Source: an uncultured Aquimarina sp. (lineage in GTDB: Bacteria > Bacteroidota > Bacteroidia > Flavobacteriales > Flavobacteriaceae). From it: a stretch of 64,000 bases of DNA. This document shows positions 31,587 to 54,794 of the stretch, piece after piece. Under the pieces are notes generated by a model. The model did not search any database and was not told the DNA's origin. It saw only the letters and a list, made by a program, of their open reading frames with translations. Both the position numbers and the translations under genes were made by a program. Location of the stretch: contig CANMLG010000007.1 in assembly GCA_947498765.1 (NCBI GenBank), positions 19,547-83,546 of the forward strand, written 5' to 3'. Position 1 is the first letter of the stretch. Every line of letters begins with the position of its first letter.

Positions 31587-31640
31587 CCATTCGCCGATAG
31601 ATAAAGGTTATCCACCGATAAAAAAAGAAGTCTTATCGAA
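31587..31640 (+). promoter_or_regulatory. Three 21-bp-periodic repeats (putative LytTR site) upstream of the signalling operon
   Basis: ccattcgccgat 31587, ttatccaccgat 31608, agtcttatcgaa 31629; near-consensus -7 box TTATTTTG at 31669. Confidence 0.7.
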
Positions 31641-31712
31641 AGTGAGTAATGATTTTTTTAATATTAAATTATTTTGTAGGATATTAATTATCAGTAATAT
31701 AACTTAGAACTA

Positions 31713-32123
31713 ATGAAATCGATTTCCTTTTTACTTATTGAAGATGATTTAATTGAAACGCTAAAGTTCAATCGAGTTTTAGATACTTTAGAGGCTAAAC
31801 ATTTGGTAAACCGGGTTGAAAATGGAGAGGAAGCTTTGGAATTTTTGAAAAATACAGATGAGGTACCCGATGTAATTTTATTGGATCTAAATATGCCTAA
31901 AATGAATGGAATCGAATTTTTAAAAATTTTAAAGGAAGATGAGGTATTAAAATACATTCCTGCAATAATACTATCGACATCAAATAATCAAAAGGATATT
32001 TTAGAATGTTATAAAATAGGAGTAGCAGGTTATATAATGAAACCATTGAAGTATGAGGATTACACTCTGAAAATTAAAAATTTAGTAGCCTATTGGTCTT
32101 GTAATGAATTTATAAAAATATAA
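31713..32123 (+). CDS. Single-domain response regulator (Rcp1-like)
   Basis: LLIEDD, ILLDLNMPKMNGIEFL, ILSTS and GYIMKP motifs. Confidence 0.9.
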   Translation: MKSISFLLIEDDLIETLKFNRVLDTLEAKHLVNRVENGEEALEFLKNTDEVPDVILLDLNMPKMNGIEFLKILKEDEVLKYIPAIILSTSNNQKDILECYKIGVAGYIMKPLKYEDYTLKIKNLVAYWSCNEFIKI

Positions 32124-32124
32124 A

Positions 32125-32664
32125 ATGAAAGGTATTGTATTTACAGAGTTTTTAGAATTAGTTGAAGAGAAGTTTGGTTTGGAAACGGTTGATAAAATTA
32201 TAAATGCGTCTAATTTACCAAGTGGAGGAGCATATACGGCTATAGGAACGTATGATTTTGCAGAAATGCTGAGTTTGTTATCGCATTTAAGTGATCATAC
32301 AAGTATTTCTATAGATGATTTATTATTGGTTTATGGGGAACATTTTTTTAGTGTTTTAGCACGTAGCTACCCACAGCTGATAGAAAAGTATAAAGGGCCC
32401 ATTGAATTACTTTCATCAATAGAAAATCATATACATGTGGAGGTTCGTAAGATTTATCCAGATGCCGAATTGCCTACTTTTGAAATTGTGGAAAAAACGG
32501 ATAAGGCATTGATAATGATTTACAAATCGAGCAGAGCAATGTCTAGTTTTGGATTGGGTTTAATGAATAAAACGTTTAATCATTACAATGCAAATGCAAC
32601 GATTTTATTGGATAAAATTAAGGCAGACGGAACAGAGGTTAAATTTAGTATTACTAAAAATTAA
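32125..32664 (+). CDS. H-NOX (heme nitric oxide binding) protein
   Basis: MKGIVFTEFLELVEEKFG start, proximal His in HIHVEVRK, DAELPTF and the YxSxR heme motif (YKSSR). Confidence 0.92.
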   Translation: MKGIVFTEFLELVEEKFGLETVDKIINASNLPSGGAYTAIGTYDFAEMLSLLSHLSDHTSISIDDLLLVYGEHFFSVLARSYPQLIEKYKGPIELLSSIENHIHVEVRKIYPDAELPTFEIVEKTDKALIMIYKSSRAMSSFGLGLMNKTFNHYNANATILLDKIKADGTEVKFSITKN

Positions 32665-33881
32665 TGAGTACAACTAATCTCGAAATATTACAAAGAGCGC
32701 TACTTCGTGAGAAAAAAGCTAGAAAAGCGGCCGAAAATATCTTGGAAGATAAGTCAAGGGAGCTGTATTCAATTACGCAACAATTAAAAGAAGCTAACGA
32801 AAAACTACAGTCTGGATTAACCGAAAAAACATCTGAGCTACAAGGCGTATTTGATAATTTAGTTGATGCTTATGTTTTAATGGATTTAGGTGGAAATGTT
32901 ATAAAATTGAATGAGGCAGCAAAAGAATTATTTGGATATGATGTGCCCAAGGAAACGGTTAATGTAGTCCGATTAATTTATAAAGAAGACTTTAACTATG
33001 CTATGCTGTCCTTTAATTTGTTAATTGAAACAGGTTCATTTAGCGATTATATAGCACGTGTTTATACTAAAAGTAAAGGCGTGCGTTGGGTGCATATTAA
33101 TGCGAGTATTATTAAAAATAGCAAGAATAAACCCATCGGGGCCCAAGGCATTGTTAAAGATATTACGGATCAAAGAGCCATTGAGGAGCAGAATAAAAAG
33201 TTAGTACAGGATTTAGAAAAAAGTAATGAAGAGCTTGCTGAGTATGCACATATAGTATCTCACGATTTAAAATCACCGCTAAGGAGTATTAATGCATTGG
33301 TAAATTGGCTTCGAGAAGACTATAAAAACGTATTGGATGATACCGGATTAGAAAACATTAAGCTTATTGAGCAAACATTAGAAAAAATGGAGCATTTGAT
33401 TAATGGCATTTTAAACTATTCTAGTGTAAACAATATAGGTATACTCAAAAACGAGAATGTAGATATTAATAGCATAATTAAAGAAATTGAAAATACCATT
33501 TTTATTCCTAAGTATATTAAAATTATAAAAAAGCAAAATTTACCAATAATAAAAGGAGATAAAACAAGGCTACAACAACTTTTTCAAAACATAATTAGTA
33601 ATGCCGTAAATTATATTGATAAAGAAATAGGGATTATTCAAATAAGTTTTGAAGATAAAAGCACGCATTATTTGTTTGAAATAAAAGATAATGGGGTGGG
33701 AATAGAGAAAGAATATTTTGATAAAATATTCAAGATTTTTCAGTCCCTAGGGAATAATAAAAATTCAACGGGTATAGGACTTTCTATTGTTAAAAAAATT
33801 ATAGAAATCTATGATGGTGAAATTTGGCTAGAGAGTGAACCTAAAATAGGCACTAGTTTTTTCTTTACATTAAAAAAATAG
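32664..33881 (+). CDS. PAS-domain sensor histidine kinase
   Basis: N-terminal coiled coil, PAS (WVHINAS...GIVKDIT), H-box SHDLKSPLR, N box NIISNA, DNGVGI and GIGLSIV. Confidence 0.93.
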   Translation: MSTTNLEILQRALLREKKARKAAENILEDKSRELYSITQQLKEANEKLQSGLTEKTSELQGVFDNLVDAYVLMDLGGNVIKLNEAAKELFGYDVPKETVNVVRLIYKEDFNYAMLSFNLLIETGSFSDYIARVYTKSKGVRWVHINASIIKNSKNKPIGAQGIVKDITDQRAIEEQNKKLVQDLEKSNEELAEYAHIVSHDLKSPLRSINALVNWLREDYKNVLDDTGLENIKLIEQTLEKMEHLINGILNYSSVNNIGILKNENVDINSIIKEIENTIFIPKYIKIIKKQNLPIIKGDKTRLQQLFQNIISNAVNYIDKEIGIIQISFEDKSTHYLFEIKDNGVGIEKEYFDKIFKIFQSLGNNKNSTGIGLSIVKKIIEIYDGEIWLESEPKIGTSFFFTLKK

Positions 33882-33884
33882 AAA

Positions 33885-35018
33885 ATGAAATTTCAGCAAT
33901 ACGAAAAACAAAAAAACATGGATTGGGTATTAGTTTCTTCAACTAAAATACAATTAAAAAAACCGCTTGTGTTGGTTTTTGGAAATCGCTTTTTGTTAGA
34001 AGAAGCTGCTGTTTATGAGGATGTGAAAAATATATTTCCAGATGGCGAAATTATATTAGGTTCGACGGCAGGGGAAATTATGCTAGAAAAAGTATACGAA
34101 GATTCTATTACGATTACAGCTATTGAGTTTGAAAAAAGTAGTTTTAAGGTGGAACGTGCCAATATTTTGGATTTTGATAAGGATGCTGTAGCTATTGGAA
34201 AACATTTGGCCGCACAATTGCCAAGTAAAAATTTGAAGCATATGTTTATCGTTTCGGAAGGGAGTTTTGTGAATGGATCAGCTTTAATAAATGGACTGGA
34301 GTCTGAAAATACAAATACTGCAATTACGGGAGGTTTGTGTGGAGATGATGCTCGCTTTGAAAAAACAGTGGTAGGTTATAATGAAAAACCTAAAGAAGGT
34401 GAAATAGTTGCCATTGGTTTTTACGGTGAAAGCTTAGAAATTAGTTTTGCTCAATATGGAGGTTGGACGCCCTTTGGCCCCGAACGGATAATAACAAAAT
34501 CTGAAGGGAATGTGCTTTTTGAATTGGATAATTTACCGGCTTTGGATTTGTATAAAAAATATTTGGGAGACAAGGCGGCTCAATTACCTCAATCAGCTTT
34601 ATTATACCCACTAAGTTTAATGCAAAAAGGAAAAAAGGAACCGATAGTTCGTACAATTCTTTCCATAAATGAAGGAAAAAATACAATGACCTTGGCAGGG
34701 GATGTGCCCATGGGATCGACGGTTCAATTAATGATGGCAAATATTGATAACATTGCCGAAGGGGCTTTGCATGCTGCCGATATAGGAATGAAAAACAGAA
34801 AAAATAAACCCGAGTTGGCTCTTTTGGTAAGCTGTGTGGGCCGAAAATTGGTTATGGATCAACGGGTGGAAGAGGAGATTGAAGAGGTCATTGAAATAAT
34901 TGGTGAGCAGGCCGTTGTTGGAGGTTTTTATTCCTATGGTGAGTTGGCTCCATTTTATGGGAATAAGTCGTGCGAGTTGCATAATCAGACTATGACGTTA
35001 ACTTTATTTAGTGAATAA
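33885..35018 (+). CDS. FIST-domain (NosP-like) sensor protein
   Basis: GSTAGEI, ITGGLCGDD, GGWTPFGP, ELDNLPAL, SCVGRK and GFYSYGE motifs of FIST_N + FIST_C. Confidence 0.9.
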   Translation: MKFQQYEKQKNMDWVLVSSTKIQLKKPLVLVFGNRFLLEEAAVYEDVKNIFPDGEIILGSTAGEIMLEKVYEDSITITAIEFEKSSFKVERANILDFDKDAVAIGKHLAAQLPSKNLKHMFIVSEGSFVNGSALINGLESENTNTAITGGLCGDDARFEKTVVGYNEKPKEGEIVAIGFYGESLEISFAQYGGWTPFGPERIITKSEGNVLFELDNLPALDLYKKYLGDKAAQLPQSALLYPLSLMQKGKKEPIVRTILSINEGKNTMTLAGDVPMGSTVQLMMANIDNIAEGALHAADIGMKNRKNKPELALLVSCVGRKLVMDQRVEEEIEEVIEIIGEQAVVGGFYSYGELAPFYGNKSCELHNQTMTLTLFSE

Positions 35019-35020
35019 AT

Positions 35021-36067
35021 ATGAATTCTTTATTGGCTAGACAACTACGGAAATTACTTGATGATGATCTAAAAAATGATCCTAGGTTAAGCTTATTTTT
35101 AAAAGCCATAGAAAGATCATACGAAAATTATGAAGATCAATTTAGTATGCTCCAACGGGCCATGTCTATAAGTTCGGAAGAATTATTTGATGCCAATACT
35201 AAATTAAAAGATGAAGCAAAACAGCAACAAAAAGTAATAGCGAGTTTACAGGAAGCTACTAAAGTATTGGAGCGGATTTCGGTTAAAAATAGAGTAGGAG
35301 AAAAGGAACAATCTTTGACGGGGATAGAGTTGGCAAAATTAATAGAAAAACAAGCCAAACAGATTTCTGAAATAGAAGAACAGCGTCAAAAAATATTAGA
35401 AGATCTTGAAAAAAGTAATCAACAACTAAGTGAATACGCACATGTGGTTTCTCATGATTTAAAATCTCCGTTGCGAACCATTAATACATTAATGAATTGG
35501 ATTAAAGAAGATAATGTGACAGGTTTATCGATTGATACACAGCATAATTTCAATTTAATAGATCAAAATATCCAAAAAATGGATCATCTTATAAATGATA
35601 TTTTAGAATATTCATTAATAGATAAAAAGCCTACCCGAAATGTAAGCATTAATGTGGAGCAATTAATGAATGAGATTATTGATGTGAGTACCATTCCAAA
35701 GCATATTAAAATTACTATAGGTGCATTGCCTAATATTTATATGGACAAGGTAAGGCTAAGGCAAGTGTTTCAAAATTTAATTGAAAATGCTATTACAAGT
35801 ATCGATAAACCAAAGGGAACTATTCATATTGAGGCTAAAGAACATTTAACAACCTGGGAATTTATTGTTGGGGATAATGGAAAAGGCATAGCAGAAAAAT
35901 ATCATGAAAAGATTTTTGAAGTTTTCCAATCATTAGAAGTTAAAGGAACTTCCACCGGTATAGGGCTTTCTATAGTTAAAAAAATAATTGAGTTTTATAA
36001 AGGAAAGGTCTGGGTAACTTCTCAAGTGGGAGTAGGAACTACATTTCATTTTACCATAAAAAAATAA
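35021..36067 (+). CDS. Cytoplasmic histidine kinase without a recognisable sensor domain
   Basis: Coiled-coil N-terminus; SHDLKSPLR, NLIENA, DNGKGI and GIGLSIV boxes. Confidence 0.92.
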   Translation: MNSLLARQLRKLLDDDLKNDPRLSLFLKAIERSYENYEDQFSMLQRAMSISSEELFDANTKLKDEAKQQQKVIASLQEATKVLERISVKNRVGEKEQSLTGIELAKLIEKQAKQISEIEEQRQKILEDLEKSNQQLSEYAHVVSHDLKSPLRTINTLMNWIKEDNVTGLSIDTQHNFNLIDQNIQKMDHLINDILEYSLIDKKPTRNVSINVEQLMNEIIDVSTIPKHIKITIGALPNIYMDKVRLRQVFQNLIENAITSIDKPKGTIHIEAKEHLTTWEFIVGDNGKGIAEKYHEKIFEVFQSLEVKGTSTGIGLSIVKKIIEFYKGKVWVTSQVGVGTTFHFTIKK

Positions 36068-36071
36068 TAGT

Positions 36072-36392
36072 ATGCAAGAGGCTCCAAACAATACTTACAT
36101 TAAACAATTGGCGAATGGAAATACAGCTTTTGAAAAGAAATTGATTGCTATTGTTAAAAGAGAATTCCCTGAAGAACAAGCAGAATTTATAAAAAATTAC
36201 AAGCATAAAAACTATATGGCTGCTGCAGAAAACGTACACAAATTAAAGAATAAAATAGGTATGCTAGGAATGGAAAAAGCGTACCAACTTGCTATTGATT
36301 TTGAAAATGATTTGAAAGTAGAAAAAACTATTTTATATCCTGAATTTATAGTACTTTTAAATCAGATGGAAGATTTTATTATGAATTTATAA
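36072..36392 (+). CDS. Stand-alone Hpt phosphotransfer protein
   Basis: Helical 106-aa protein with AAENVHKLKNKIGMLG (HxLK Hpt motif). Confidence 0.8.
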   Translation: MQEAPNNTYIKQLANGNTAFEKKLIAIVKREFPEEQAEFIKNYKHKNYMAAAENVHKLKNKIGMLGMEKAYQLAIDFENDLKVEKTILYPEFIVLLNQMEDFIMNL

Positions 36393-36404
36393 CATTGATA
36401 AAGA

Positions 36405-37124
36405 ATGAATTGTATTATTATTGACGATGAAGAAACAGCAAGAGTAATTATAGAACAATTATGTGATCAGGTAGAAAATTTAGACGTTATTGAATCGTTT
36501 CCAAATGCAATACAAGCCATTAAATTTTTAAATAAAAATGATATTGACCTTATTTTTTTAGATATACATATGCCCGATTTTACAGGTTTTGATTTTATTC
36601 AAACCTTAAAAAATCCGCCCAAAATAATATTAACCACTTCCGATAAAAATTTTGCACTTGAAGCTTTTGAGTATGATTGCATTGTGGATTATGTTGTAAA
36701 GCCAATTACATTAACTCGATTTACAAAAAGTATTGAAAAAGCAAAGATATTTGTCGATAAGGTAGCTAAGTCACAGCAAACAGACACAATTGCCACCGAA
36801 AATACAATTAGTGATACTGATTTGTATGTAAATATTGATCGTAGATTAATAAAAATCAACTTTTCGAGTATTGCTATAATTGAAGCCAAAGGCGATTATA
36901 TTCAAATAAAAACGGATACTAAAAATTATACGGTACACTCTACGCTTAAAAAAATTCAGGAAAAGCTACCGGATCATCTTTTTTTAAAAGTACATCGATC
37001 TTATATTATACACATCAAAAAAATTATTGATATCGAAGATAATAGTGTGCTAATTGCCAAAGATGTTATTCCTGTAAGTCGTTCTAATAGACCCGAGTTA
37101 ATGAAACGGCTTAACTTGTTGTAA
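36405..37124 (+). CDS. LytTR-family DNA-binding response regulator
   Basis: Receiver IIDDE/FLDIHMP/VVKP plus LytTR IEAKGDY, FLKVHRSYII and IPVSRS motifs. Confidence 0.95.
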   Translation: MNCIIIDDEETARVIIEQLCDQVENLDVIESFPNAIQAIKFLNKNDIDLIFLDIHMPDFTGFDFIQTLKNPPKIILTTSDKNFALEAFEYDCIVDYVVKPITLTRFTKSIEKAKIFVDKVAKSQQTDTIATENTISDTDLYVNIDRRLIKINFSSIAIIEAKGDYIQIKTDTKNYTVHSTLKKIQEKLPDHLFLKVHRSYIIHIKKIIDIEDNSVLIAKDVIPVSRSNRPELMKRLNLL

Positions 37125-37158
37125 TGTAACGGGTATAATTTTAAACCTTTCGAATAAA

Positions 37159-37227
37159 CCATTTACCGACACCAAATTACCACCCACCGAATATCCTTAA
37201 AATACAGATAGTTAAGATTTAGTTTTG
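37159..37227 (+). promoter_or_regulatory. Two 21-bp-spaced repeats plus -7 box upstream of the T9SS protein gene
   Basis: ccatttaccgac 37159, ccacccaccgaa 37180; exact TAGTTTTG at 37220-37227. Confidence 0.72.
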
Positions 37228-37256
37228 ATGTATGTAAAACTAAAATCACTACTGTC

Positions 37257-40200
37257 ATGAAAAAACAAGCACTTTTATTCATCGTTTTTTTAAGCTTTCA
37301 GGCTTTTTCTCAGCAAGCATTTGACTGTAATGACAGCAAATTTTATCAAGTAATTTCCGGAGCCCTAAAATCCTATGATCCAATTTTAGGAGCCTATTCC
37401 AAAGCACTACACACCTATTCCTCTTATAATGCTGGAGGTTATAATCCTCAAGATAATTTTTTATATGCTATAAAAGGAAAAGATAAACATCTTTTGCGTA
37501 TAGGAATGGATAGTATTATTGATTTAGGCGCTGTGGCAGCAAAAGGAACAGTTGTTTTTGGAGGGGGGTATGCCGCAGATGTGGATGCCGAAGGCAACCT
37601 TTGGGTATATCAAAATAATACAAAAAATAGTTTTCATAAAATAACTAATCTAGCGTCATACAATGGAGGAGCATCACCAGTTTTTGAAGTAGTCAATGTA
37701 AATGTAGCCTCGCCAAGTACCTGTGCGGATATTACCTATATAAATAATGCCTTTTATGGCGGAAGCCGAGGAAAACTTTATAAATGGGATCTGTCTACGG
37801 GTTCGCCTATATTTTCAAGTAAAACAGTAGCTAATTTACCTAAAAGTACTTTTGGAGCTGCGTATACCGATGCAAATAATCGACTGTATTTATCGGATAA
37901 TAACGGCGGTTTATATGTGGTAGATGCTTATGATAGTGACCAACCTGTGGCCACATTATTAAACTTAACCGAAATCACAAATTCTAATGATGGATTTAAA
38001 TGTGCCAATGGGATTTCTCCAATTGATAAAGACCAGGATGGAATTTTAGATACTATGGATCAAGATACGGATGGTGATGGAATACCCAATAGTATGGAGT
38101 CTAATAGTACTAATCCTTATGGGGATGATGATGGTGATGATACTTATAATTATTTAGATAATGACACTAGTGGTAGTGGTGATAGTGTGGTCCAACGTGC
38201 TTATGATAGAGATGCCGATGGAGTGCCCGATTTTTTTGATCAAGACTCGGACAATGATGGAATTTATGATATTGTTGAAGCAGGTTATGGCTATTTGGAC
38301 ACCAATATGGATGGGGTATTTAATACTAAGGATATGAATTATACTGATACGGATCAGGATGGTTTAGCAGATATATTTGATACGGATAATGGAGGAGAAC
38401 TAGTTTTGCTGGATACAGATAATGATGGTGTTTATAATGCATATGATACCGATTCTGATAATGATGGCATTGTAGACCTTATTGAAGGGCAAGAAAGTAC
38501 AACATATCAGTCTTTATCATATAAAGATGAAGATCAAGATGGAATGGATGATGCTTTTGATAGCAGTTTTGGAGGAGTAGCTAATGGAACAGTTAATTCG
38601 GATACTACAGATGCTTTTGATTATTTGGACTTGGATTCAAATAATGATGGAATATCAGATAGTGTGACAGCCTATGACAGTGATGGAGATGGCATAGCCG
38701 AAACAATTATTTCGGGGATCGACGGAGATGCAGATGGTTTAGATGATAGTTTTGATCTAATGAAGAGTAGCTTTTCTCCAGATAATGGAGGACAAACACC
38801 CGCTAGTTTTCCTATACCCGCTTTGTGTGATCGCTACAATTATTTAGGAGAATTTTCTGCAGATGGTACTCCCTTGTATTTGGATGAAAATGATGTTATT
38901 TCTCAAGCAACCATGGATATGGTAGCTAATGCATTGCCCGAAAGCTATCCAGTACCGGATTTTAATCCGCATTATATTTCTTCGGGTTATGATACGGATG
39001 TAGTAGTGCAAGAACAAGCAGATATATGGGTCACTTTTATTAGCGAAGGTGCAGTCTACAAAAATACTTTAGGCTTTTATACTTATGATAGCAATAACCC
39101 GATAACCACTACCCCAAACCCAGAGGATATTACCATTATTTTTCCAAATGTATCTGCTCTGGATAGTGGAGGTAGTTTAGTGGCAGGAAACAAAGTAAAA
39201 ATTGGTAGTTTTCCACCAAATACTGGAATTGGATGGGTGTTATTAGCCAATGCTTGGTCAGATGGATGTGTTGGAGCTGGGAATTGGTCGTTATTTTCTA
39301 ACCCAGATTTTAATCCCGAAAGCAATCCTACTTTACAATATCATAATGTGTTATTGTCAGATCCCGATAATGAAAGAATCATTCTTGGGTTTGAAGATAT
39401 AAGAAGGGATTATGCCTCATGCGATCAAGATTTTAATGATGCATTATTTTATATTACCGCAAGCCCTTATAGTGCAATAAAAAATGTGAATTATGCTACT
39501 ATTGAAAGTGCTACGAATGTTACTTCGGCTAACGACGGGGGATTAGAGAGTAATGGCGATTTAGCCAAATTAATTGCAAAGCGTAACTTTAATAGAGCAA
39601 AGAAAAATACATTTCATAATCAAAAATCAACACAGTCCAGATTCATTGCTGGAATGCATTCGGGGAAATCCTTGAATTCATTAAATGGATATTTCCCAGC
39701 AACAGGAATGTATGGTACCGAAACTACATTTATTTCGAGTCCCGATGATCTAATAGAAATCACAAATGCCAAAGAGGTTTTCGCTATAGATTATTATCAA
39801 AATGAGGCACGAGTTGCAGCGGCATTTGCAACAGCAACAACAGGAAGTATTTACGATCATTCAAAAATTATTTGTGATCGATTAAATGGATCAAGTCTAT
39901 TGGATGTACGTACACTTTTTATTAGAAATCATAGATTAATAAATACCAAAATTAAAAGAGCCAATGGCGAAATTGAGCAAACCTTGTCTTTTTCAGTAAA
40001 ACTTGGCGAAGTTAGTAATGAGTTGTATAGTTTTTGGAATATTGATCAATACCCGACAGGGGATTATTTAAATTTTCAAATTTGGGGAGGCTCAGTAGGA
40101 CAAGTAGCTACTATTGCAAACACTATTATAGATAAATTAAAAGAAACCAAAACTTTAGTAAGCACTCCTGTAGCTGATCAAATTCCAACTGTTTTTGTTC

Positions 40201-41270
40201 AAAAAGGGAGTTATAAAGCAGGTAAGCTGGAATTGAAAATCACCAATAAAAATGGAGTAAAAGAAGTCACATTTAAAAGTAACCTACGTAAGACCGAATT
40301 AAGTGCTGAAGAATCAAAAACTGAAATTTTAAATTTATCTGGAGCTTATGAAGAAGAAATTACAGTAACTACAGGTTATTTATTTGATATCGGTTTTTCG
40401 ATATCAGTTGAGGGATCTGAGCGATCAGATGCTTTATACCTTGCCGATGGTCCTTGGGGTATTGATTACCGATCGACAGAGGTTAAAATAGCAGCCTTTG
40501 ATATTAATGAACAAAATGATTTTGAAACCATAGAAAATCACTTAGTGGAGCGTAGTGTATCATTACAAGGCGAAGTAAAAGGAACAGTTAATATATTTCG
40601 AAATGTACTAGCAGGGGATCTAAGTTTGGATGTAGATAGTACCGGAGGTATTCAATTTAACATGGAGGCAAACACTGCTGTAGAAGTAATTTTGGTGCCC
40701 AGAGTATTAGCTAACTGGAACAATAGATTGCGTTACACTATTACACCAACTGAAGCGGCTAAAACCTATAGCATTCCCTTTGAAAGTTTTGTAGATGCTT
40801 CGGGTAAATCAGCCGATTTAGAAAATATAAGAAGTGTGGTGTTTTCAATACAAGGGGATTATACCACATTTAAAGAATTTGATGTTGCTGTAACTAGTTT
40901 AAAAATAGTAAATACTATGGATGCTGAAATAGTAGTAGCTGAGGTCGAAACAAAAGACCCAGAAACTACTATTACATCGGAAACATTAACTATTACACCT
41001 AATTTTCCAGCCTCACAAAAAATCAAAAAATTAAGTAACTATCCTAATCCGTTTATAAATCAGACCACCATACAATTACCTGATGGGATAGTAGCAAATA
41101 GCATACAAGTTGTTGATATGCATGGTAAAATAGTAAGAACCGAAGCCTTAATAGCAAACACCATTAAAGACTTTAATTTTGAAGCAAAAAAATTAAGTGC
41201 TGGATATTACATATATATTATAACAGACATTCAAGGGAAGGTATTTAAAGGGAGTTTTGTTATTCGATAA
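37257..41270 (+). CDS. 1337-aa T9SS-secreted adhesin-like protein (propeller-like N-domain, DxDxDG Ca-binding repeats, DUF4114-like domain, CBM-like domain, CTD)
   Basis: Signal peptide; thrombospondin type 3-like DxDxDG repeats ~38025-38757; GFEDIRRD...DQDFNDALF DUF4114-like motif; NYPNPF...LSAGYYIY CTD. Confidence 0.8.
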   Translation: MKKQALLFIVFLSFQAFSQQAFDCNDSKFYQVISGALKSYDPILGAYSKALHTYSSYNAGGYNPQDNFLYAIKGKDKHLLRIGMDSIIDLGAVAAKGTVVFGGGYAADVDAEGNLWVYQNNTKNSFHKITNLASYNGGASPVFEVVNVNVASPSTCADITYINNAFYGGSRGKLYKWDLSTGSPIFSSKTVANLPKSTFGAAYTDANNRLYLSDNNGGLYVVDAYDSDQPVATLLNLTEITNSNDGFKCANGISPIDKDQDGILDTMDQDTDGDGIPNSMESNSTNPYGDDDGDDTYNYLDNDTSGSGDSVVQRAYDRDADGVPDFFDQDSDNDGIYDIVEAGYGYLDTNMDGVFNTKDMNYTDTDQDGLADIFDTDNGGELVLLDTDNDGVYNAYDTDSDNDGIVDLIEGQESTTYQSLSYKDEDQDGMDDAFDSSFGGVANGTVNSDTTDAFDYLDLDSNNDGISDSVTAYDSDGDGIAETIISGIDGDADGLDDSFDLMKSSFSPDNGGQTPASFPIPALCDRYNYLGEFSADGTPLYLDENDVISQATMDMVANALPESYPVPDFNPHYISSGYDTDVVVQEQADIWVTFISEGAVYKNTLGFYTYDSNNPITTTPNPEDITIIFPNVSALDSGGSLVAGNKVKIGSFPPNTGIGWVLLANAWSDGCVGAGNWSLFSNPDFNPESNPTLQYHNVLLSDPDNERIILGFEDIRRDYASCDQDFNDALFYITASPYSAIKNVNYATIESATNVTSANDGGLESNGDLAKLIAKRNFNRAKKNTFHNQKSTQSRFIAGMHSGKSLNSLNGYFPATGMYGTETTFISSPDDLIEITNAKEVFAIDYYQNEARVAAAFATATTGSIYDHSKIICDRLNGSSLLDVRTLFIRNHRLINTKIKRANGEIEQTLSFSVKLGEVSNELYSFWNIDQYPTGDYLNFQIWGGSVGQVATIANTIIDKLKETKTLVSTPVADQIPTVFVQKGSYKAGKLELKITNKNGVKEVTFKSNLRKTELSAEESKTEILNLSGAYEEEITVTTGYLFDIGFSISVEGSERSDALYLADGPWGIDYRSTEVKIAAFDINEQNDFETIENHLVERSVSLQGEVKGTVNIFRNVLAGDLSLDVDSTGGIQFNMEANTAVEVILVPRVLANWNNRLRYTITPTEAAKTYSIPFESFVDASGKSADLENIRSVVFSIQGDYTTFKEFDVAVTSLKIVNTMDAEIVVAEVETKDPETTITSETLTITPNFPASQKIKKLSNYPNPFINQTTIQLPDGIVANSIQVVDMHGKIVRTEALIANTIKDFNFEAKKLSAGYYIYIITDIQGKVFKGSFVIR

Positions 41271-45368: not shown

Positions 45369-45456
45369 ATCGGTTATTTTTAATGTATTACTAAGTTAAC
45401 CATATCTTTTGTAGATAAGCTTAAATGTCTTATTTTAAATAAGTTAAAAATAATGA

Positions 45457-46683
45457 ATGAACTTATCTATACTCAAAAAAATAACCTCGGAACAATGGTT
45501 TATGTTGAGTGCACTTTTTGTAAATGCAGGAAATTATGCCTATAATTTAATATTAGGGCGCCTATTAGGGCCAGAACAGTTTGCCGATGCGGCTATTTTA
45601 ATCACCTTTTTATTAGTACTTTCATTTATTGCCATGACCTTTCAGTTAGCTACGGCTAAATTTTCGGTGCTTTTTGAAAATCAAAACTTCATTAATTTTT
45701 TAAGTAAAGTATATAGATATGCTTTATGGACAGGAATTGTTTTAGGAATTGGAATTGTAGTAGCGGCTAAATTTTTGCAAGATATATTTCATACGCAAAG
45801 TCATTATATGTTTGTTTTTTTTGGTATCGGAGTGCCATTATACTTTATAATGAGTGTAAACCGAGGGGTATTACAAGGAAAAGAACGTTTCGGAAAATTG
45901 GCGATTACCTACCAAACCGAAATGTTAAGTAGGTTGTTTTTAACTATAAGTTTACTTTTTTTACTAAAAATAGAAACCGCTATTTTAGTAGCTATTGGTA
46001 TTATAACTTCATTGATATTTGGATTGTTTCCCTTTGCGGAAGAAAGGATTTCTTTAAAAAAAGGCATGGCTTTATCCATGGAACATAGTAGCCGCATCAA
46101 AAAGTTTTTTTTACTGACCGCCTTTTACGAGCTGAGTCAGATTATTATTAATAACAGCGATATTCTGTTGGTGAAACATTATTTTGAAGCCTATGATGCA
46201 GGTTTATATGCCTCATTAGCTTTAATAGGACGGGTAGTTTATTTTGTAGCTTGGATGTTTGTAATGATTTTATTACCCAAAGTAGTGCAATTACATAAGG
46301 CAGGAAAACCCACAGCACCCATATTGTCAAAATACGTATTGTATATTGGCGTATTATCATTTGGAATTATTTTAAGCTGTTATTTCTTTCCAACTTTTGT
46401 AGTAGAATTGTTATTTGGTAGTGCCTATGTGAGTATTGCTCCATTGTTGTGGAAATATGCTGTGGCCACGTCATTATTTGCGATCTCTAATATTTTTGCC
46501 TATTATTTTTTATCATTGGACACTTATATTCCGGTAATATTATCTGCTTTACTTGGCATTACGCAGGTGTTATTAATTATTTTCTTTCATAATTCGTTAT
46601 TGGAAGTGGTACTTATGCAAATTTATGCCATGGCAGTTTTGTTGGGAGTGCAGCTAATTTATTGGCACCGCCAAAGGCTATAA
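45457..46683 (+). CDS. Wzx/MATE-like oligosaccharide flippase
   Basis: About 12 TM segments; NAGNYAYNLILGRLLGPEQF, DILLVKHYF and AGLYASLALIGR patterns. Confidence 0.82.
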   Translation: MNLSILKKITSEQWFMLSALFVNAGNYAYNLILGRLLGPEQFADAAILITFLLVLSFIAMTFQLATAKFSVLFENQNFINFLSKVYRYALWTGIVLGIGIVVAAKFLQDIFHTQSHYMFVFFGIGVPLYFIMSVNRGVLQGKERFGKLAITYQTEMLSRLFLTISLLFLLKIETAILVAIGIITSLIFGLFPFAEERISLKKGMALSMEHSSRIKKFFLLTAFYELSQIIINNSDILLVKHYFEAYDAGLYASLALIGRVVYFVAWMFVMILLPKVVQLHKAGKPTAPILSKYVLYIGVLSFGIILSCYFFPTFVVELLFGSAYVSIAPLLWKYAVATSLFAISNIFAYYFLSLDTYIPVILSALLGITQVLLIIFFHNSLLEVVLMQIYAMAVLLGVQLIYWHRQRL

Positions 46684-46713: not shown

Positions 46714-46804
46714 TCGGATATCGATACACAAAAACCACTCGCCGATAGCAATTTGTAACTCGCCGAAAATGAGCCTATAAAGCGCGTATATCGAAGCATC
46801 TTTA
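46714..46804 (+). promoter_or_regulatory. Three 21-bp-periodic repeats plus weak -7 box upstream of GT4
   Basis: tcggatatcgat 46714, ccactcgccgat 46735, taactcgccgaa 46756; CATCTTTA (2 mismatches to TAnnTTTG) at 46797. Confidence 0.68.
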
Positions 46805-46828: not shown

Positions 46829-48031
46829 ATGAAACTTGCCATTGTAACTGCCTATCCGCCTAGTAAAGTAACTTTAAATGAATATGCCTATTATTTAGTA
46901 AAGCATTTCAGAAAACACCAAGAAGTAAGTGAATTGATTTTACTTACCGATGTACTACCTGAAGAAGCTGATATCCATTTTGAAGAAGAAGCTTGTAAAA
47001 TCAGTGTAAGACACTGTTGGACTTTTAATAGTTATACCAATTTGTTTTCGGTAATGAAAACAATTAATGAAGTAAAACCAGATGCCGTATTGTTTAATTT
47101 ACAATTCATGAAGTTTGGTGATAAAAAAATCCCTGCTGCTTTAGGCTTGTTATTGCCCGGAGTTTGTAAGCTAAAAGGAATACCTACCATTACACTGTTA
47201 CATAATATTTTAGAGCAAGTAGATTTAAAAAGCGCTGGGTTTACGTCTAATAAAATAATGCAGAAAGCTTATAATTTTATAGGAACAACATTAACACGAT
47301 TTATTTTAGCATCGGATACAGTAGCGGTAACTATTAGTAAATATGTAGAGGTGTTAAATGAAAAGTATAAGGCAACAAACGTAAAGTTAATTCCGCATGG
47401 TACATTTGAAATCCCTGAAAAACCAAATTATAATGTCCCAAAAGGACCTTTAAAAGTAATGACTTTTGGAAAGTTTGGTACCTATAAAAAAGTTGAAATT
47501 TTAATAGAAGCTATTGAAAAAACAAGAGCAACAACAAATAAAGATATAGAAATCGTAGTGGCTGGAACAGACAATCCTAATGTGCCTGGGTATTTAAAAT
47601 CGGTACAAGAAACCTATAAAAATGTACCACAATTAACATTTACAGGTTATGTGGCAGAGGAAGATGTGGCGGGCTTATTCGAAGAAAGTGCCGTGGTAGT
47701 TTTTCCGTATACTTCAACTACCGGAAGCTCGGGTGTATTACACCAAGCAGGAAGTTATGGGAAAGCCGTGGTAATGCCAGATTTAGGTGATCTTAGTATT
47801 TTAGTTAAAGAAGAAGGCTACCGAGGTGAATTTTTTACTCCCGAAAGTGTTGACAGTTTAGCAACGGCAATACAAAGTATTTTGGAAAACGATGCTTATC
47901 GTATTTCTTTAGGAAAAGCAAATTACAACGCAGCTACTGCATTACCCATGTCTAAAATTGTAGACATGTATATGGATGAATTTAATGAAATTATGGATCG
48001 TAAAGTTAGTGGCGTATTTGATGTGGCTTAA
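46829..48031 (+). CDS. Family 4 (GT-B) glycosyltransferase
   Basis: LIPHG, TFGKFGTYKKVE, VVFPYTSTTGSSGVLHQA and GKAVV motifs. Confidence 0.88.
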   Translation: MKLAIVTAYPPSKVTLNEYAYYLVKHFRKHQEVSELILLTDVLPEEADIHFEEEACKISVRHCWTFNSYTNLFSVMKTINEVKPDAVLFNLQFMKFGDKKIPAALGLLLPGVCKLKGIPTITLLHNILEQVDLKSAGFTSNKIMQKAYNFIGTTLTRFILASDTVAVTISKYVEVLNEKYKATNVKLIPHGTFEIPEKPNYNVPKGPLKVMTFGKFGTYKKVEILIEAIEKTRATTNKDIEIVVAGTDNPNVPGYLKSVQETYKNVPQLTFTGYVAEEDVAGLFEESAVVVFPYTSTTGSSGVLHQAGSYGKAVVMPDLGDLSILVKEEGYRGEFFTPESVDSLATAIQSILENDAYRISLGKANYNAATALPMSKIVDMYMDEFNEIMDRKVSGVFDVA

Positions 48032-48062
48032 TGAAAAGAATTGGTAGGGCGATCAATAATTA

Positions 48063-48485
48063 TTAAATAATGGGATTGCTAGCAAGATACTCTTTAGCAG
48101 TTAATACGGGTAGTTTGGAATTTTTGAAATCCTTTTTATTTCTGGTAATAATAATATCAACTTGGTTTTCAATAGCTGAGTAATATTGCAATCCATCTTC
48201 AAAATCAGGAAAGTTATCATCATTTAAAGCAAGTTCAGTAACTTTATCATCTAAACTTAAAGTTTCAACAAGTACTTTAAATTTCCTTAATATAGTTCTG
48301 GATTCTTTTTTTGATTTTAACTGAGTTAAAATGTAATTAGTATTAGCAAAACTCAGCGAAGAAACTGTTAGCCTTAATAAATTTTTATCGGCCATAGAAA
48401 ATAAAGCAGCAGCTTCAGGATAAAATGCTTCTCTTTTGGCCAATAGATCAATAATAATATTAGTGTCAATTAATAATCGAATCAT
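48063..48485 (-). CDS. PIN-domain (VapC-like) toxin
   Basis: LLIDTNIIID and DFEDGLQYYSA...IITRNKKDF acidic PIN residues. Confidence 0.9.
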   Translation of the reverse strand: MIRLLIDTNIIIDLLAKREAFYPEAAALFSMADKNLLRLTVSSLSFANTNYILTQLKSKKESRTILRKFKVLVETLSLDDKVTELALNDDNFPDFEDGLQYYSAIENQVDIIITRNKKDFKNSKLPVLTAKEYLASNPII

Positions 48486-48727
48486 TTGTATTTCTCTATT
48501 AAAAAATTACCATAATTATCAGTTATATTTTCGGCATTGTTTAAATCGATTACACCGCTTAAACTTTCGACTAGTGGAGTAATTTCTTGCGAATGCTCTT
48601 TTCTTTTATTTAGTGAAGCCAAATAGGATTCAATAAGTTTTGATAGACTTGTTTTATTGGATTTTGCATATTTTTTAGCTTGTTCAATAACCGATTTATC
48701 AAGACTTAAGGTAAGTTTAGTATCCAT
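48482..48727 (-). CDS. Ribbon-helix-helix antitoxin (DUF6364-like)
   Basis: MDTKLTLSLDKSVIEQAKKYAK...SLSKLIESYL; overlaps the toxin start by 4 nt. Confidence 0.85.
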   Translation of the reverse strand: MDTKLTLSLDKSVIEQAKKYAKSNKTSLSKLIESYLASLNKRKEHSQEITPLVESLSGVIDLNNAENITDNYGNFLIEKYK

Positions 48728-48796
48728 AATAAATTTATTTACGTATAAAAATACAAAATTTACACGTAAAAAAACAATGTTATTATCAAAATAAGA

Positions 48797-50341: not shown

Positions 50342-51564
50342 AATTTAATATTCGAATGAATTGATGTAAGTCCCAAGGCTTCTATAATAAAAGAATAGGT
50401 GCCAGGAGAATAAAAGCCTTTTTCTAAATCAAAAGAAATCATTCCTTTAGCGGTAGTTTTTAGTTTTGTTTCTAAAATTTGTTCATTTTTGGTTATTGTT
50501 AGTTTTACAATAGCCCCATCGGGAATCAATTGTTCCATAAAGCTTTGCAAAGGGCCAATGCTAATTCTTCTATTAGCATTGGTAAAACGTACAGGTAGTT
50601 TTTCGGTTACGCCTTTGTAGTTAATGTGAATCGTATTACTTGTGGCCATGCCATTTATTTGTGAAGTAACTTCCCAAGTGGCTTTATGATCGGGATGTAG
50701 CATAAAAGCTGTTGCCACCCCATTAATACTCATGCCTTGTGTTTTTAATGAACTGTTGTTTTGGTTTTTAATTATAAAATTCACTAAAGTACCATCGCTA
50801 ATCGTATTTCCATAAGTATCTTTTATTACCGAAGTGGTAAAAGTGGTGATTTGATTCCCATCGGCATAAATGTGTTCACGTTGATAATCAATAGTAAAAT
50901 TTGTGGGTTGTGCCGGAAAAACCTCAATAGAAAATTCTTTTGAACTAACATCATTTAGTGTTGATGAAACTAATATCCGTCCTGATTTGGTATCCGAATG
51001 TATCGTTTTCCAGGCGATCAGGTCGGTGGTTTTAATCGAAGCTTCTTTTTGATCATCTAAAAATTGATGTTTAATTGAAATAGGTGTATTATTTGCAATA
51101 GGATTGTCATAGCCATCGGTAGGCACTACAACTAGCATAGTATAATCGTGTGTGCCAGCAGAAATACTTGGGGGTCCAATGTAGGATTCTAGTTTATGCG
51201 TATTTTTAGTATTTGCAGTAATTGTAATGTTTCCTTGGTATAAAGTAACGCCTTCAGAAATTAATTGAAAATCGAGTACTCCTTTTTTAGTGCTTATTTT
51301 TTCTGGAAAGGAAAAAGAAGCGTCGGATAACTCATAATCTGGATTAATAATTGTAGTTCCGTAGGCACTATGGCAGACTAAATTTACTGTTGTAGGGGCA
51401 TTCAACTCAAATTCCAAAGTGATGTGCTCACTAGCTTCAAAAACCGTTTGTGTGGTAGTTAATTTGGCCGTTATTGCCTGTTGCACGAATGCATACGAAT
51501 AGCAACTTAGGCATATAAGGCATAAGGATATGAATAGACTATTATGTTGATTATTTAACTTCAA
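50338..51564 (-). CDS. Exported protein with Ig-like (invasin/Big-type) domains
   Basis: Signal peptide; ADGNQITTFTTSVIKDTYGNTISDGTLVNF motif of Big_1-type folds. Confidence 0.6.
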   Translation of the reverse strand: MKLNNQHNSLFISLCLICLSCYSYAFVQQAITAKLTTTQTVFEASEHITLEFELNAPTTVNLVCHSAYGTTIINPDYELSDASFSFPEKISTKKGVLDFQLISEGVTLYQGNITITANTKNTHKLESYIGPPSISAGTHDYTMLVVVPTDGYDNPIANNTPISIKHQFLDDQKEASIKTTDLIAWKTIHSDTKSGRILVSSTLNDVSSKEFSIEVFPAQPTNFTIDYQREHIYADGNQITTFTTSVIKDTYGNTISDGTLVNFIIKNQNNSSLKTQGMSINGVATAFMLHPDHKATWEVTSQINGMATSNTIHINYKGVTEKLPVRFTNANRRISIGPLQSFMEQLIPDGAIVKLTITKNEQILETKLKTTAKGMISFDLEKGFYSPGTYSFIIEALGLTSIHSNIKL

Positions 51565-51574
51565 TTCTTCATAT

Positions 51575-54500
51575 TTAATTTGGTGCTCCTACGTAATTAT
51601 TCAATGCTATTTTTAGGTATGAAAAGCCTTTTCCTTTTACAGGAATTAAATCATCATTTTTGCTTTTATACTTTGTGCCTACATCTATTTTTTCAAGTAA
51701 AGCTTTATTGGGTAATCCATTTACAAAGGTGTTTTCGGTAGTATCTTTAAGTACGTTTAAGCCAATAATATTTGGCAGTTCAAATGAAAAAAATTGTTTG
51801 CGTTGTTGTCTAATTCCTTCGGGTAAAAAGTGATGCGTTACCCAAATTAATTGTTTGTTTTTATCATAATAAGAAACCAATAGTTGGGGAATGGTTACTT
51901 CTTGCAAGCCCGCATTAAAGAGTATTCCTGTAATAGTTTCATTAGTTATCGTTATTTCTTGGAGTGCCACACTTTTGTAAAGATCTACATTGGCAACATT
52001 TCCCGCGCACTGTAAATCAAAAGTAGCCGGTATTTCTTTTATAGAAGCTGGTGTAAATTCCTTTGGGTTAAAAGTTTTAGGGCCTTTGTCCGTATTTTTT
52101 TGCCAAGCAATCCCTTCAAAATTTATGCGAAAGCTTGTGACTTCTTTAGGAAGTAATTTATGTTTCATTTGATGCATTACATTATAGGAAGCTAATTTGT
52201 TATTGGAGTGGTTGTATAAGGAAGCATTAACAACAACATCGGCAGGAACATCATCTACATTCTGTAACTGACCAATAATACTATATTGATTATTGAATTG
52301 AATAAGTTTGGAAGAAAGTACTTCTAATACAGGCTGTTTTAAAACATCTTCGTGATGTGTTTGTTCAGAGGTAATTCGACGTCGTCCGTGATTGTGAAAT
52401 TTAGTGGTGTTTACTGAAAATAATTGATCTGGTGGTAAGTCTAAATCATAATCCGATGGTGTAATAAACCATTTGTTATTTAGCTTATATAATTCATGGT
52501 GGTATTCCTTTTCAATACGTTCCAAAGGAGTAATCCAAAAAGTGTTTACCGTTACTTTTGCAATACTATCGTTTTGTGAAATAAGCTTGGTTTTAATAGC
52601 ATCAAGTTTGGCATAAGAGCTCAATAATCCATCATTTACAGCAATTTCTAACATATACTGGTCTTTAGTTTTATGATTTTTAGGGTTTAAATAGGAATAA
52701 GCACGTTCAAATTCTTTAAAATCCAAGGCATCATAATACGCAGCAATCACATTTTGAGGACTAATTTGTGTGGCGTTTACTAAGTAAAATTTATAGCTTC
52801 CTAAACCTAAAAAAAATAAGCAGAGCAGAATCCAACCCAAAGAAAAAGAAATAATCTGTGGATTAAATTTTATGTACGAAATAGAAAAGTTGAGATAGTT
52901 AGCTTTTGGCAAAGGGATTATTTTAAGCACTCGATTCCAAAGGCGTTTAAAATGTAATAGAAATACGATAATTAGCGTACTTACGGGAACAATGCCCCAA
53001 AGTAATTTTTGAAAAAGCGGAATTTCATCTTTGGGTAAAATACTGGCTAATGGTTTGACATTTAGTTTTTCCCAAACCATAATGCCATTTTCTAACTGGC
53101 GCAAGCGTTGCCAACCACAAAAATAAAGGATGGGATCATAAAATTTATCGTTAGAAAATACATACTTTAAATGATATTTTTCGGGTACCGTAAGGAATTG
53201 TTGTAAAGACCCTAAGCCTTCGATTCCTCTAAATTTCGAATTTTCTAAACGCTCTACAGCTCTGGTTGTTAATTCGGGTAACCTGCGAGCGGAGTGGTAA
53301 TTTCCATCGACCGTCATGGCATTAGTTTGCGCTGATAGCCATGCCATTTGATCGCCAAAACCTAAGGGTAAAAATCGCCAATGGTCATGCTGATCTTGAT
53401 TTAAAAAATTAAGAATAGGAAGCATGTTAATTTTTTGGGGTTGCGAAGGTTTAAAATAGCTAAGGTTGACCGAAAAAATGAATACGCCTATAATTCCGCT
53501 GACCAAAAAACCTCCTAATAAACGATGCAAAACACTTCCAAATTTGCGTTGTAAAGTTTCTTTTAAATCTCCTTCAATAAAACGAAAAAGGAATTCGCCA
53601 AATAAAGGCAAGGCCATAATGGAGGCCCAAAGAGTAAATCGATCAAGCGTAAGGATGTTAAAGGCATTTTCGCCTAATATTAATTTAGGGATAGGCGTAG
53701 TGCCCCCTGTGCCTAAAAGCGTAAGAAAACTAAAAGATAAACCGAAAAATAAGTAACGTTTGCTGTAAAATCGATAAAATAAATAGGGAAATACAAAGAG
53801 TAATATACCCCAAGGAATAATAAAAAAGACTAAGCCCGATGAGGTTACCTCTATAAAATTATCTCGTGACCCATGAGGTATGGGAACTTGAGTAATGGGA
53901 TTGTTTTTAGTGTTTATCCAATAGGGAAGGATACAAAATATGATTAATGCTAAAGCATTTATTCCAAAACTTAAAATGCGTTTAAAGTGTTTAAAAAATG
54001 TTTTTAAAAACAAAGTAAAACGTACTTTTTTATAAGAACCTACATTTTCACGGGCAATGTCCATAAGCACCATTCCCAGTAAAGGGAAAATAAAGAATAC
54101 CATTCCAAAAATAGGAGTCACATGATGCGATGTAATGGTAACAGCAAGTAAACTAAGAGCCGCTAACAGGTGCTTGTATTTCTTAGTTGTAATCCATAAA
54201 TAAATTTCGGGCAGACAATGCATAAGTACCGAAATGCCAATAATACTAGGTAGTTGCCCAAAAACATGTAAAGTTTCGACAAATGAAGAAGAAAATACGG
54301 CTGCAATTGCGGCATAACCCGCCACTTTTCTGTCCCCTGTAAATAGTAATGAAAACCGATAAACGCCCGTAATAAATAAAAGTATGGCAATAAAGGCTAC
54401 AGCAAATAAGCCAAATTTTAAACCGCCGATAAAGGAAAACAGGGCAATAGATTGATGCACCAAAGGTGGATAGCCCGTTACAGTAAAGCCAGTATACCAT

Positions 54501-54664
54501 TTGTAGTTCCAGGGTTCAAACCAATGACTGGCATAATGCTCGGCAAAGCACAAATGTATAAGTGCATCATAGGTGGTTTCCAGGGTAAAAAACAAACTGA
54601 TTCCATGTAAGGTAATCCCTAGTATTAAGGCACTAATTAGGTATTTATTGGTTTTAATTGGCAT
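51575..54664 (-). CDS. 1029-aa polytopic membrane protein, GT-C-like N-half plus extracytoplasmic NTF2-like and FxLYD-like domains
   Basis: TYDALIH after TM1, GYPPLVHQ, SHHVT and DRFTLW motifs; ~13 TM segments; C-terminal IIGQLQN...VNASLYN. Confidence 0.6.
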   Translation of the reverse strand: MPIKTNKYLISALILGITLHGISLFFTLETTYDALIHLCFAEHYASHWFEPWNYKWYTGFTVTGYPPLVHQSIALFSFIGGLKFGLFAVAFIAILLFITGVYRFSLLFTGDRKVAGYAAIAAVFSSSFVETLHVFGQLPSIIGISVLMHCLPEIYLWITTKKYKHLLAALSLLAVTITSHHVTPIFGMVFFIFPLLGMVLMDIARENVGSYKKVRFTLFLKTFFKHFKRILSFGINALALIIFCILPYWINTKNNPITQVPIPHGSRDNFIEVTSSGLVFFIIPWGILLFVFPYLFYRFYSKRYLFFGLSFSFLTLLGTGGTTPIPKLILGENAFNILTLDRFTLWASIMALPLFGEFLFRFIEGDLKETLQRKFGSVLHRLLGGFLVSGIIGVFIFSVNLSYFKPSQPQKINMLPILNFLNQDQHDHWRFLPLGFGDQMAWLSAQTNAMTVDGNYHSARRLPELTTRAVERLENSKFRGIEGLGSLQQFLTVPEKYHLKYVFSNDKFYDPILYFCGWQRLRQLENGIMVWEKLNVKPLASILPKDEIPLFQKLLWGIVPVSTLIIVFLLHFKRLWNRVLKIIPLPKANYLNFSISYIKFNPQIISFSLGWILLCLFFLGLGSYKFYLVNATQISPQNVIAAYYDALDFKEFERAYSYLNPKNHKTKDQYMLEIAVNDGLLSSYAKLDAIKTKLISQNDSIAKVTVNTFWITPLERIEKEYHHELYKLNNKWFITPSDYDLDLPPDQLFSVNTTKFHNHGRRRITSEQTHHEDVLKQPVLEVLSSKLIQFNNQYSIIGQLQNVDDVPADVVVNASLYNHSNNKLASYNVMHQMKHKLLPKEVTSFRINFEGIAWQKNTDKGPKTFNPKEFTPASIKEIPATFDLQCAGNVANVDLYKSVALQEITITNETITGILFNAGLQEVTIPQLLVSYYDKNKQLIWVTHHFLPEGIRQQRKQFFSFELPNIIGLNVLKDTTENTFVNGLPNKALLEKIDVGTKYKSKNDDLIPVKGKGFSYLKIALNNYVGAPN

Positions 54665-54724
54665 CTAAAATAAATATACAACAAAGGCTTTATTTTTAGG
54701 TAACTGTTTGACTTTTAATTAAAA

Positions 54725-54794
54725 CCATTCGGCTATAGCAAGCTTCTACTCATCGAAATATCCCTATTTAAGCAGGCATGCAGCGGTACATTTG
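54725..54794 (+). promoter_or_regulatory. Two 21-bp-spaced repeats plus -7 box upstream of GT2
   Basis: ccattcggctat 54725, ctactcatcgaa 54746; exact TACATTTG at 54787-54794. Confidence 0.68.

Follow-up and report, generated by a model that had tools for sequence, protein, structure and literature searches.

Phased 21-bp repeats at five promoters form a putative LytTR operator in an uncultured Aquimarina

We analyzed a 64,000-nucleotide stretch of contig CANMLG010000007.1 (hereafter "the window") from the draft genome of an uncultured Aquimarina sp. (Flavobacteriaceae; GenBank assembly GCA_947498765.1), in which five promoters carry tandem 14-bp repeats with a 21-bp period. Judging from their sequence and surroundings, these repeats are probably the operator of the response regulator encoded at 36405-37124, a protein with a receiver (REC) and a LytTR domain that would act as an activator and also control its own operon. 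The sites keep a fixed phase and a fixed geometry relative to the promoter, are exclusive to this region of the genome, and are conserved together with the surrounding gene cluster across genera. We infer the identity of the binding protein and the sign of its action from linkage, site resemblance and promoter geometry.

Phased repeats upstream of five promoters

Reading the sequence at four regions reported in a first-pass annotation of the window, we found 14-mers of the form CCAYTCRCCGAWAN at all ten of the positions it had listed, with a period of exactly 21 bp throughout (P1 to P4). The annotation spoke of four promoters; all four were recovered by an independently trained matrix, which also located a fifth, P5, that had been missed. 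Because P5 lies on the minus strand at 31472, P1 and P5 are divergent promoters within one shared intergenic region. The pair of sites at P5 reads CCATTCGTCTACAG-taaatta-CCAATTAACTACAA, and 22 bp further on comes a degenerate third site (spacings of 21, then 22 bp). The operators and their -7 boxes are as follows, with scores from the independent matrix described below:

P1 operator, 31587-31642, plus strand: three 14-mers at 31587 (CCATTCGCCGATAG), 31608 (TTATCCACCGATAA) and 31629 (AGTCTTATCGAAAG), upstream of the signalling operon; 34.1 bits
P1 -7-like box, 31669-31676, plus strand: TTATTTTG, located 32 bp downstream of the last core C and 44 bp upstream of the ATG; 5 of 6 TAnnTTTG positions
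P2 operator, 37159-37193, plus strand: two 14-mers at 37159 (CCATTTACCGACAC) and 37180 (CCACCCACCGAATA); 36.5 bits
P2 -7 box, 37220-37227, plus strand: TAGTTTTG, located 32 bp downstream of the core C and 37 bp upstream of the ATG; perfect TAnnTTTG
P3 operator, 46714-46769, plus strand: a weak distal site at 46714 (TCGGATATCGATAC) and two strong sites at 46735 (CCACTCGCCGATAG) and 46756 (TAACTCGCCGAAAA); 36.1 bits
P3 weak -7-like box, 46797-46804, plus strand: CATCTTTA, located 33 bp downstream of the core C and 32 bp upstream of the ATG; 4 of 6 positions
P4 operator, 54725-54759, plus strand: two 14-mers at 54725 (CCATTCGGCTATAG) and 54746 (CTACTCATCGAAAT); 33.2 bits
P4 -7 box, 54787-54794, plus strand: TACATTTG, located 33 bp downstream of the core C and 32 bp upstream of the ATG; perfect TAnnTTTG
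P5 operator, 31416-31472, minus strand, divergent from P1: 31472 (CCATTCGTCTACAG), 31451 (CCAATTAACTACAA) and a degenerate third site at about 31429; 33.4 bits
P5 -7-like box, 31382-31389 (at 31389), minus strand: TAATTTAG, located 32 bp downstream of the core C and 35 bp upstream of the ATG at 31354; 5 of 6 positions

The distance from the last core C to the -7 box is therefore 32-33 bp at all five window promoters. The first-pass annotation had reported this rule for P1 to P4, where the measured distances are indeed 32, 32, 33 and 33 bp, with a perfect box at P2 and P4 only. Scored singly, the third sites at 31629 and 46714 reach 8.4 and 7.7 bits, respectively (1.8 bits for the latter when held out), and each falls in register with a third site that is weakly conserved in relatives. 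Separately, a TTCGAAT element at 37143-37156 stands 16 bp upstream of the first P2 site; being out of the 21-bp phase, it was rejected as an additional P2 site.

The genome is a draft of 3.84 Mb in 75 contigs (32% G+C), and scans of both strands covered 7.68 million positions. When a matrix was built from three of the four reported promoters and the remaining one was scored genome-wide as a 21-bp dimer, held-out P1, P2 and P3 each ranked first among the non-training positions and P4 ranked third. The independent matrix, which has 38 columns and was trained solely on sites from other genomes, gave exactly five matches, at 36.5 (P2), 36.1 (P3), 34.1 (P1), 33.4 (P5) and 33.2 bits (P4), all inside the 25 kb around the regulator gene. 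The first-pass annotation had said that a motif equally common in random intergenic DNA would speak against its reading; the match goes far beyond chance. The next best match genome-wide reaches 13.9 bits, and no further regulon members above that score were found elsewhere in the draft genome. Pairs at 21-bp spacing that scored 18-21 bits were considered as extra members and rejected, as they drop out under the independent matrix; they may be coding sequence.

For comparison with relatives, the regulator was used as a query with one genome per species, which yielded 80 loci (70-77% identity, 1.57 Mb) from more than 15 genera, including Aquimarina, Winogradskyella, Algibacter, Dokdonia, Lacinutrix, Psychroserpens, Flavivirga, Tenacibaculum, Nonlabens and other Flavobacteriaceae. 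A matrix made from the sites of the first-pass annotation, which had proposed orthologous regions as a place to look for the motif, found 189 dimers of at least 19 bits in these loci. With a refined matrix the count was 293 at a threshold of 20 bits, and all but three of these dimers (290) share the strand of the regulator gene; the consensus is CCATTCGTCKACAS-N7-YCAYYCRYCGAAA. In the aligned promoters of relatives, the site columns hold 1-2.6 bits each versus about zero for the flanks, and the repeats thus stand out as a phylogenetic footprint. Two types of site can be distinguished: distal sites end in TCKACAS and promoter-proximal sites end in YCGAAA. Of 171 non-redundant promoters, 40 have a TAnnTTTG box starting at +61/62; with a third site, the start shifts to +82/83. 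This reproduces the 32-33 bp rule in the relatives.

Three checks guarded against circularity. First, in a histogram of distances between single sites, with no spacing imposed, 128 of about 150 close pairs were 21 bp apart, followed by 22 bp (n = 8), 42 bp (n = 4) and 43 bp (n = 3); every other distance occurred fewer than three times, and no pair in the relatives was spaced by 10-11 bp. Second, unseeded 8-mer enrichment recovered GTCGACAC, CATTCGTC and CCATTCGT upstream of the orthologues of the first operon gene (REC) in 48-54 of 77 loci, and TCGTCTAC together with CATTCGTC upstream of GT4 glycosyltransferase orthologues. Third, when metagenome contigs were searched with the motif alone, five were hit, each of them carrying genes of the same cluster. 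On one of these (L082), four operators diverge from the promoter of the REC operon, as P5 does in the window. They follow one another at intervals of about 280-540 bp on the strand opposite the operon (L082:5820-7132), with one more operator facing the operon, and this row suggests a string of small regulated genes.

The signalling operon and its candidate regulator

Downstream of P1 lies a seven-gene signalling operon (31713-37124, plus strand). Its labels in the first-pass annotation, like those of the type IX secretion system (T9SS) protein, the GT4 and the GT2 glycosyltransferase discussed below, hold up against Pfam and NCBIfam. The genes, all on the plus strand, are:

31713-32123, plus: stand-alone REC protein, acceptor D58 present
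32125-32664, plus: H-NOX protein (PF07700, E-value 4.8e-39)
32664-33881, plus: PAS-HisKA-HATPase kinase, overlapping the H-NOX gene at 32664
33885-35018, plus: FIST/NosP-like protein, with strong FIST_N and FIST_C matches
35021-36067, plus: HisKA-HATPase kinase
36072-36392, plus: Hpt protein, HKLKN present
36405-37124, plus: REC-LytTR regulator (PF04397 LytTR, E-value 3.2e-19; PF00072, E-value 3.5e-18)

The LytTR regulator is the sole recognizable DNA-binding protein of the conserved cluster. Its receiver domain is intact (DD pocket, D53 in LIFLDIHMP, K in VVKP), and its nearest NCBIfam models are BtsR and LytR, with scores far below their cut-offs. A sequence search of the PDB with the regulator returned receiver-domain matches only and no LytTR-DNA complex close enough for contact mapping. 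The H-NOX protein, whose gene adjoins a kinase gene, keeps the proximal histidine (HIHVE) and the YxSxR heme motif (YKSSR), and the FIST protein scores 60.3 bits against the NosP model NF041558, which has a cut-off of 450. The operon is syntenic across the 80 related loci, where the REC, H-NOX, both kinase and Hpt genes are found in 73-79 and the FIST gene in at least 38. As both kinases and Hpt are present in 79 of the 80 orthologous operons and the FIST/NosP-like gene was detected in 38, the second sensor module appears to be variable.

LytTR regulators have been described as binding repeats of 9-11 nt separated by a spacer of 11-13 nt, and the target of YehT is ACCGCTTA-N13-ACCACTCA, with a 21-bp period (PMC4847170). 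The sites in the window and in its relatives fit this layout, being direct repeats with a strict 21-bp period, and the YehT half-site ACCACTCA matches aCCACTCR here. The AlgR site of Pseudomonas aeruginosa, derived from footprinting and chromatin immunoprecipitation sequencing, is CCGTTCGTC, with the natural variant CCGTTCATC (PMC4064291, PMC4787818). The 5' half of the sites studied here (CCATTCGTC/CCATTCATC) is one base from these, which is a resemblance only. Taken together, the repeat layout, the AlgR/YehT-like half-site, the position of the sites, the operator ahead of the regulator's own operon in 74 of the 80 loci, and the restriction of sites to the surroundings of the regulator gene argue for the LytTR operator suggested in the first-pass annotation.

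The same conserved operator could be bound by an unlinked factor, either a LytTR paralogue or another type of protein that recognizes direct repeats. Besides this regulator, the genome has about two LytTR response regulators (at most 34% identity), encoded on contigs C5 and C68, and assigning a regulator to its targets by proximity can fail. However, the genome-wide scan with the independent matrix detected no operator near either paralogue and placed every site around the gene at 36405-37124. That regulator's own operon is preceded by sites in nearly all relatives, the motif-first metagenome matches always fall in this cluster, and no other DNA-binding domain was found there. A half-site one base off that of AlgR also speaks for a LytTR protein, and repeats of the OmpR/PhoB type were ruled out because the 10-11 bp sub-period expected of them is absent. 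We therefore regard an unlinked binder as unlikely.

With the linked LytTR protein as the candidate binder, we considered whether it would activate its targets. A fixed distance separates the sites from the -7 box downstream of them, and the proximal site ends about 27 bp before the box, with no overlap. The sigma-A promoter of Bacteroidota consists of a -7 element (TAnnTTTG) and a -33 element (TTTG) about 19-21 bp further upstream. No -33 element is conserved between operator and -7 box in the aligned promoters of relatives, and for this reason the promoters look activator-dependent; combined with the fixed upstream distance, this amounts to an activator geometry. Alternatively, the LytTR regulator could bind these sites but mainly repress or roadblock transcription, or the regulation could be independent of nitric oxide (NO), with sensors that detect O2, redox state or another ligand. 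AlgR represses as well as activates, the H-NOX proteins of some organisms sense O2 or redox state, and the FIST protein falls far under the NosP cut-off. Against this, every site stands clear of the -7 box on its upstream side, the missing -33 element points to dependence on an activator, and the H-NOX protein retains its proximal histidine and YxSxR heme pocket. On balance, we judge this alternative improbable.

Under activation by the LytTR regulator, the pathway may work as follows. The H-NOX and FIST/NosP-like proteins, both putative heme-type sensors, would most likely provide the input by modulating the two soluble kinases, which would feed a split phosphorelay running from the kinases to the stand-alone REC protein, then to Hpt, and finally to the LytTR regulator. 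Once phosphorylated, the regulator would bind two to three tandem 14-bp sites on one face of the helix, spaced 21 bp, or two helical turns, apart. From the proximal site (of the YCAYYCRYCGAAA type, at about -52 to -39) it could bring the housekeeping sigma-A polymerase to promoters with a TAnnTTTG -7 box but without a conserved -33 element. Its own seven-gene operon would be switched on, generating positive feedback, along with the divergent nucleotide-sugar-dehydrogenase-like gene, the gene for a T9SS-secreted surface protein with calcium repeats, and the GT4 and GT2 genes.

Finally, chance similarity of the promoters, or a relic of duplicated or mobile DNA with no regulatory role, might be suspected from the weakness of the single third sites and the short and simple YCGA core, but is effectively refuted by the ranks of the held-out promoters, by the 33 versus 14 bit gap under the independent matrix, by the retention of the sites in 80 genomes with randomized flanks, and by a phase, an orientation and a -7 box distance that do not vary. 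We likewise rejected a mobile or REP-like repeat, as orientation and -7 distance are fixed and the flanks are unconserved.

Several observations weigh against the proposed autoregulated LytTR operator. Linkage, and a likeness to the sites of other LytTR proteins, are the grounds for assigning it to this regulator. Of the -7 boxes, that of P3 is poor (4 of 6 positions) and those of P1 and P5 are imperfect; weak third sites stand at 31629, 46714 and about 31429. Most minus-strand glycan genes of the cluster, as well as the flippase gene, have no operator. With 60 versus 450 bits for the FIST protein, its identity as NosP and the NO signal are conjecture, and because the genome is a draft in 75 contigs, more sites could lie in unassembled DNA.

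Genes behind the operator and their neighbours

In addition to the signalling operon behind P1, the operators in the window precede four genes:

30329-31354, minus (P5): nucleotide-sugar dehydrogenase-like protein, truncated; PF03720 and PF03721 with no central-domain match, and TIGR03026 far below its cut-off
37257-41270, plus (P2): 1337-aa T9SS-secreted surface protein with DUF6923, DUF4114 and Por_Secre_tail
46829-48031, plus (P3): GT4 glycosyltransferase (PF13692, PF00534)
54819-55622, plus (P4): GT2 glycosyltransferase (PF00535)

From its domain content, the P2 target may be an adhesin, as the first-pass annotation had labelled it. Among the relatives, the first open reading frame (ORF) after an operator was tallied as follows:

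REC of the signalling operon: 74 of 80 loci
T9SS protein: 42 loci
98-aa STAS protein: 33 loci
GT4 glycosyltransferase: 28 loci, with a phased weak third site
Polysaccharide flippase: 8 loci
UDP-glucose dehydrogenase, full-length: 7 loci
Outer-membrane efflux protein: 6 loci
Wzc-like chain-length protein: 4 loci
Wzy-like protein: 4 loci

The classes of gene behind the operator (signalling operon, T9SS protein, STAS, flippase, GT4, UDP-glucose dehydrogenase, outer-membrane efflux protein, Wzc-like and Wzy-like) are coherent, and the tally points to a regulon made up of the sensor operon, a secreted surface protein and an exopolysaccharide pathway. A GT2 orthologue stands behind an operator in one related locus (L043). 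Genes for the T9SS protein, a TPR protein, the flippase, GT4 and a GH5 protein recur downstream of the operon in the 80 loci.

The first-pass annotation had tied some 25 kb into a single circuit. Five transcription units within it do carry the operator. Our scans of the window and genome found none at the minus-strand genes of the cluster, which include those for the 1029-aa membrane protein, the invasin-like, GH5 and TPR proteins, the non-conserved Mrr-like ORF and the GT-C-like glycan gene. The flippase gene at 45457 (plus strand) was considered as a further target and rejected, as the 89-bp intergenic region ahead of it contains no operator. With the minus-strand glycan genes and the flippase gene left out, the circuit comprises the five transcription units and not the whole 25 kb.

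Ahead of the flippase gene, 45368-45457 holds just a -7-like TCTTTTG. The STAS gene, which lies in front of the flippase gene in the 33 relatives with an operator before STAS, is absent from this genome; the missing STAS gene and the operator-less flippase region together suggest the loss of one regulon member.

Other neighbours are less widely shared. A PIN (PF13470) and DUF6364 gene pair (48063-48727, minus strand), probably a toxin-antitoxin module, sits inside the glycan cluster and is absent from all 80 related loci. The 621-aa ORF at 41362-43227 (minus strand), which has a weak Mrr_cat nuclease match alone (E-value 0.0025), is also absent from all 80 and thus looks like an insertion between the T9SS and TPR genes. 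The 1029-aa protein (51575-54664, minus strand), divergent from P4, has no Pfam or NCBIfam matches and occurs in six related loci within 10-kb flanks.

Relation to known systems and implications

The proposed element is of a classical kind, in which 21-bp tandem repeats serve as the operator of an autoregulating LytTR protein. YehT (BtsR)/YpdB, AgrA, ComE and PlnC-type regulators likewise use at least two direct repeats that recur every 21 bp immediately ahead of the promoter, autoregulate their own operon and show a cooperative activator geometry. Their targets concern peptide quorum sensing, pyruvate uptake and bacteriocins, whereas here they are exopolysaccharide and T9SS genes. The present system differs further in its Bacteroidota host with -7 TAnnTTTG promoters, in its multi-component phosphorelay input, and in the systematic difference between distal (TCKACAS) and proximal (YCGAAA) sites. 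AlgR, of the AlgZ/AlgR system, is a LytTR-family regulator that also controls exopolysaccharide (alginate) and surface-structure genes. However, its sites are often single, in either orientation and between -700 and +390, and its input is a LytS-like membrane kinase, in contrast to the tandem 21-bp repeats at about -94 to -39 and the soluble H-NOX- and FIST-associated kinases with an Hpt relay found here.

On the input side, the operon resembles the H-NOX/HnoK and NosP/NahK networks of Shewanella, Vibrio, Pseudomonas and Legionella, in which the H-NOX gene adjoins a kinase gene, the FIST/NosP-like gene adjoins a second kinase, Hpt is an intermediate and the output is of the biofilm type. The known outputs of those networks are cyclic di-GMP (c-di-GMP) enzymes, LuxU/LuxO and HnoC, unlike the LytTR protein with a small, locally encoded regulon proposed here. 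Our literature searches found no report in which H-NOX or NosP is connected with Flavobacteriaceae or with a LytTR output, nor did they turn up a defined LytTR regulon in Bacteroidota. New in this analysis are the fifth, divergent promoter, the genome-wide exclusivity of the sites, the reverse test that started from the motif, the separation of distal from proximal site types, and the tally of regulated gene classes.

Somewhat more tentatively, at a little under even chances in our estimation, this H-NOX/FIST-LytTR locus could represent the first defined LytTR regulon in Bacteroidota, the first H-NOX/NosP pathway that ends in a LytTR transcription factor, and a self-contained, positively autoregulated switch cassette for the surface matrix. 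If so, sensors, relay, regulator and every target promoter would reside in one locus, with zero targets elsewhere in the genome. The cassette itself is shared across genera of marine Flavobacteriaceae. In this reading, the distal and proximal site types would set the order of occupancy.

Marine Flavobacteriaceae are key colonizers of algae and particles. To our knowledge, almost nothing has been established about the regulation of their matrix and adhesins or about the targets of their H-NOX and FIST sensors. The locus provides a precise wiring diagram for this genome (one putative regulator, a 14-bp site of known phase and five promoters), together with a core regulon that is conserved in at least 80 species and consists of the signalling operon plus T9SS-protein, STAS, GT4 and further exopolysaccharide genes. 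It may also offer a ready-made set of inducible promoters and operators for Bacteroidota genetics. A putative NO input would be tied directly to transcription and not to c-di-GMP. Were the switch cassette to operate in this way, these algal- and particle-associated bacteria would respond to nitric oxide by switching on a T9SS cohesion protein and an exopolysaccharide.

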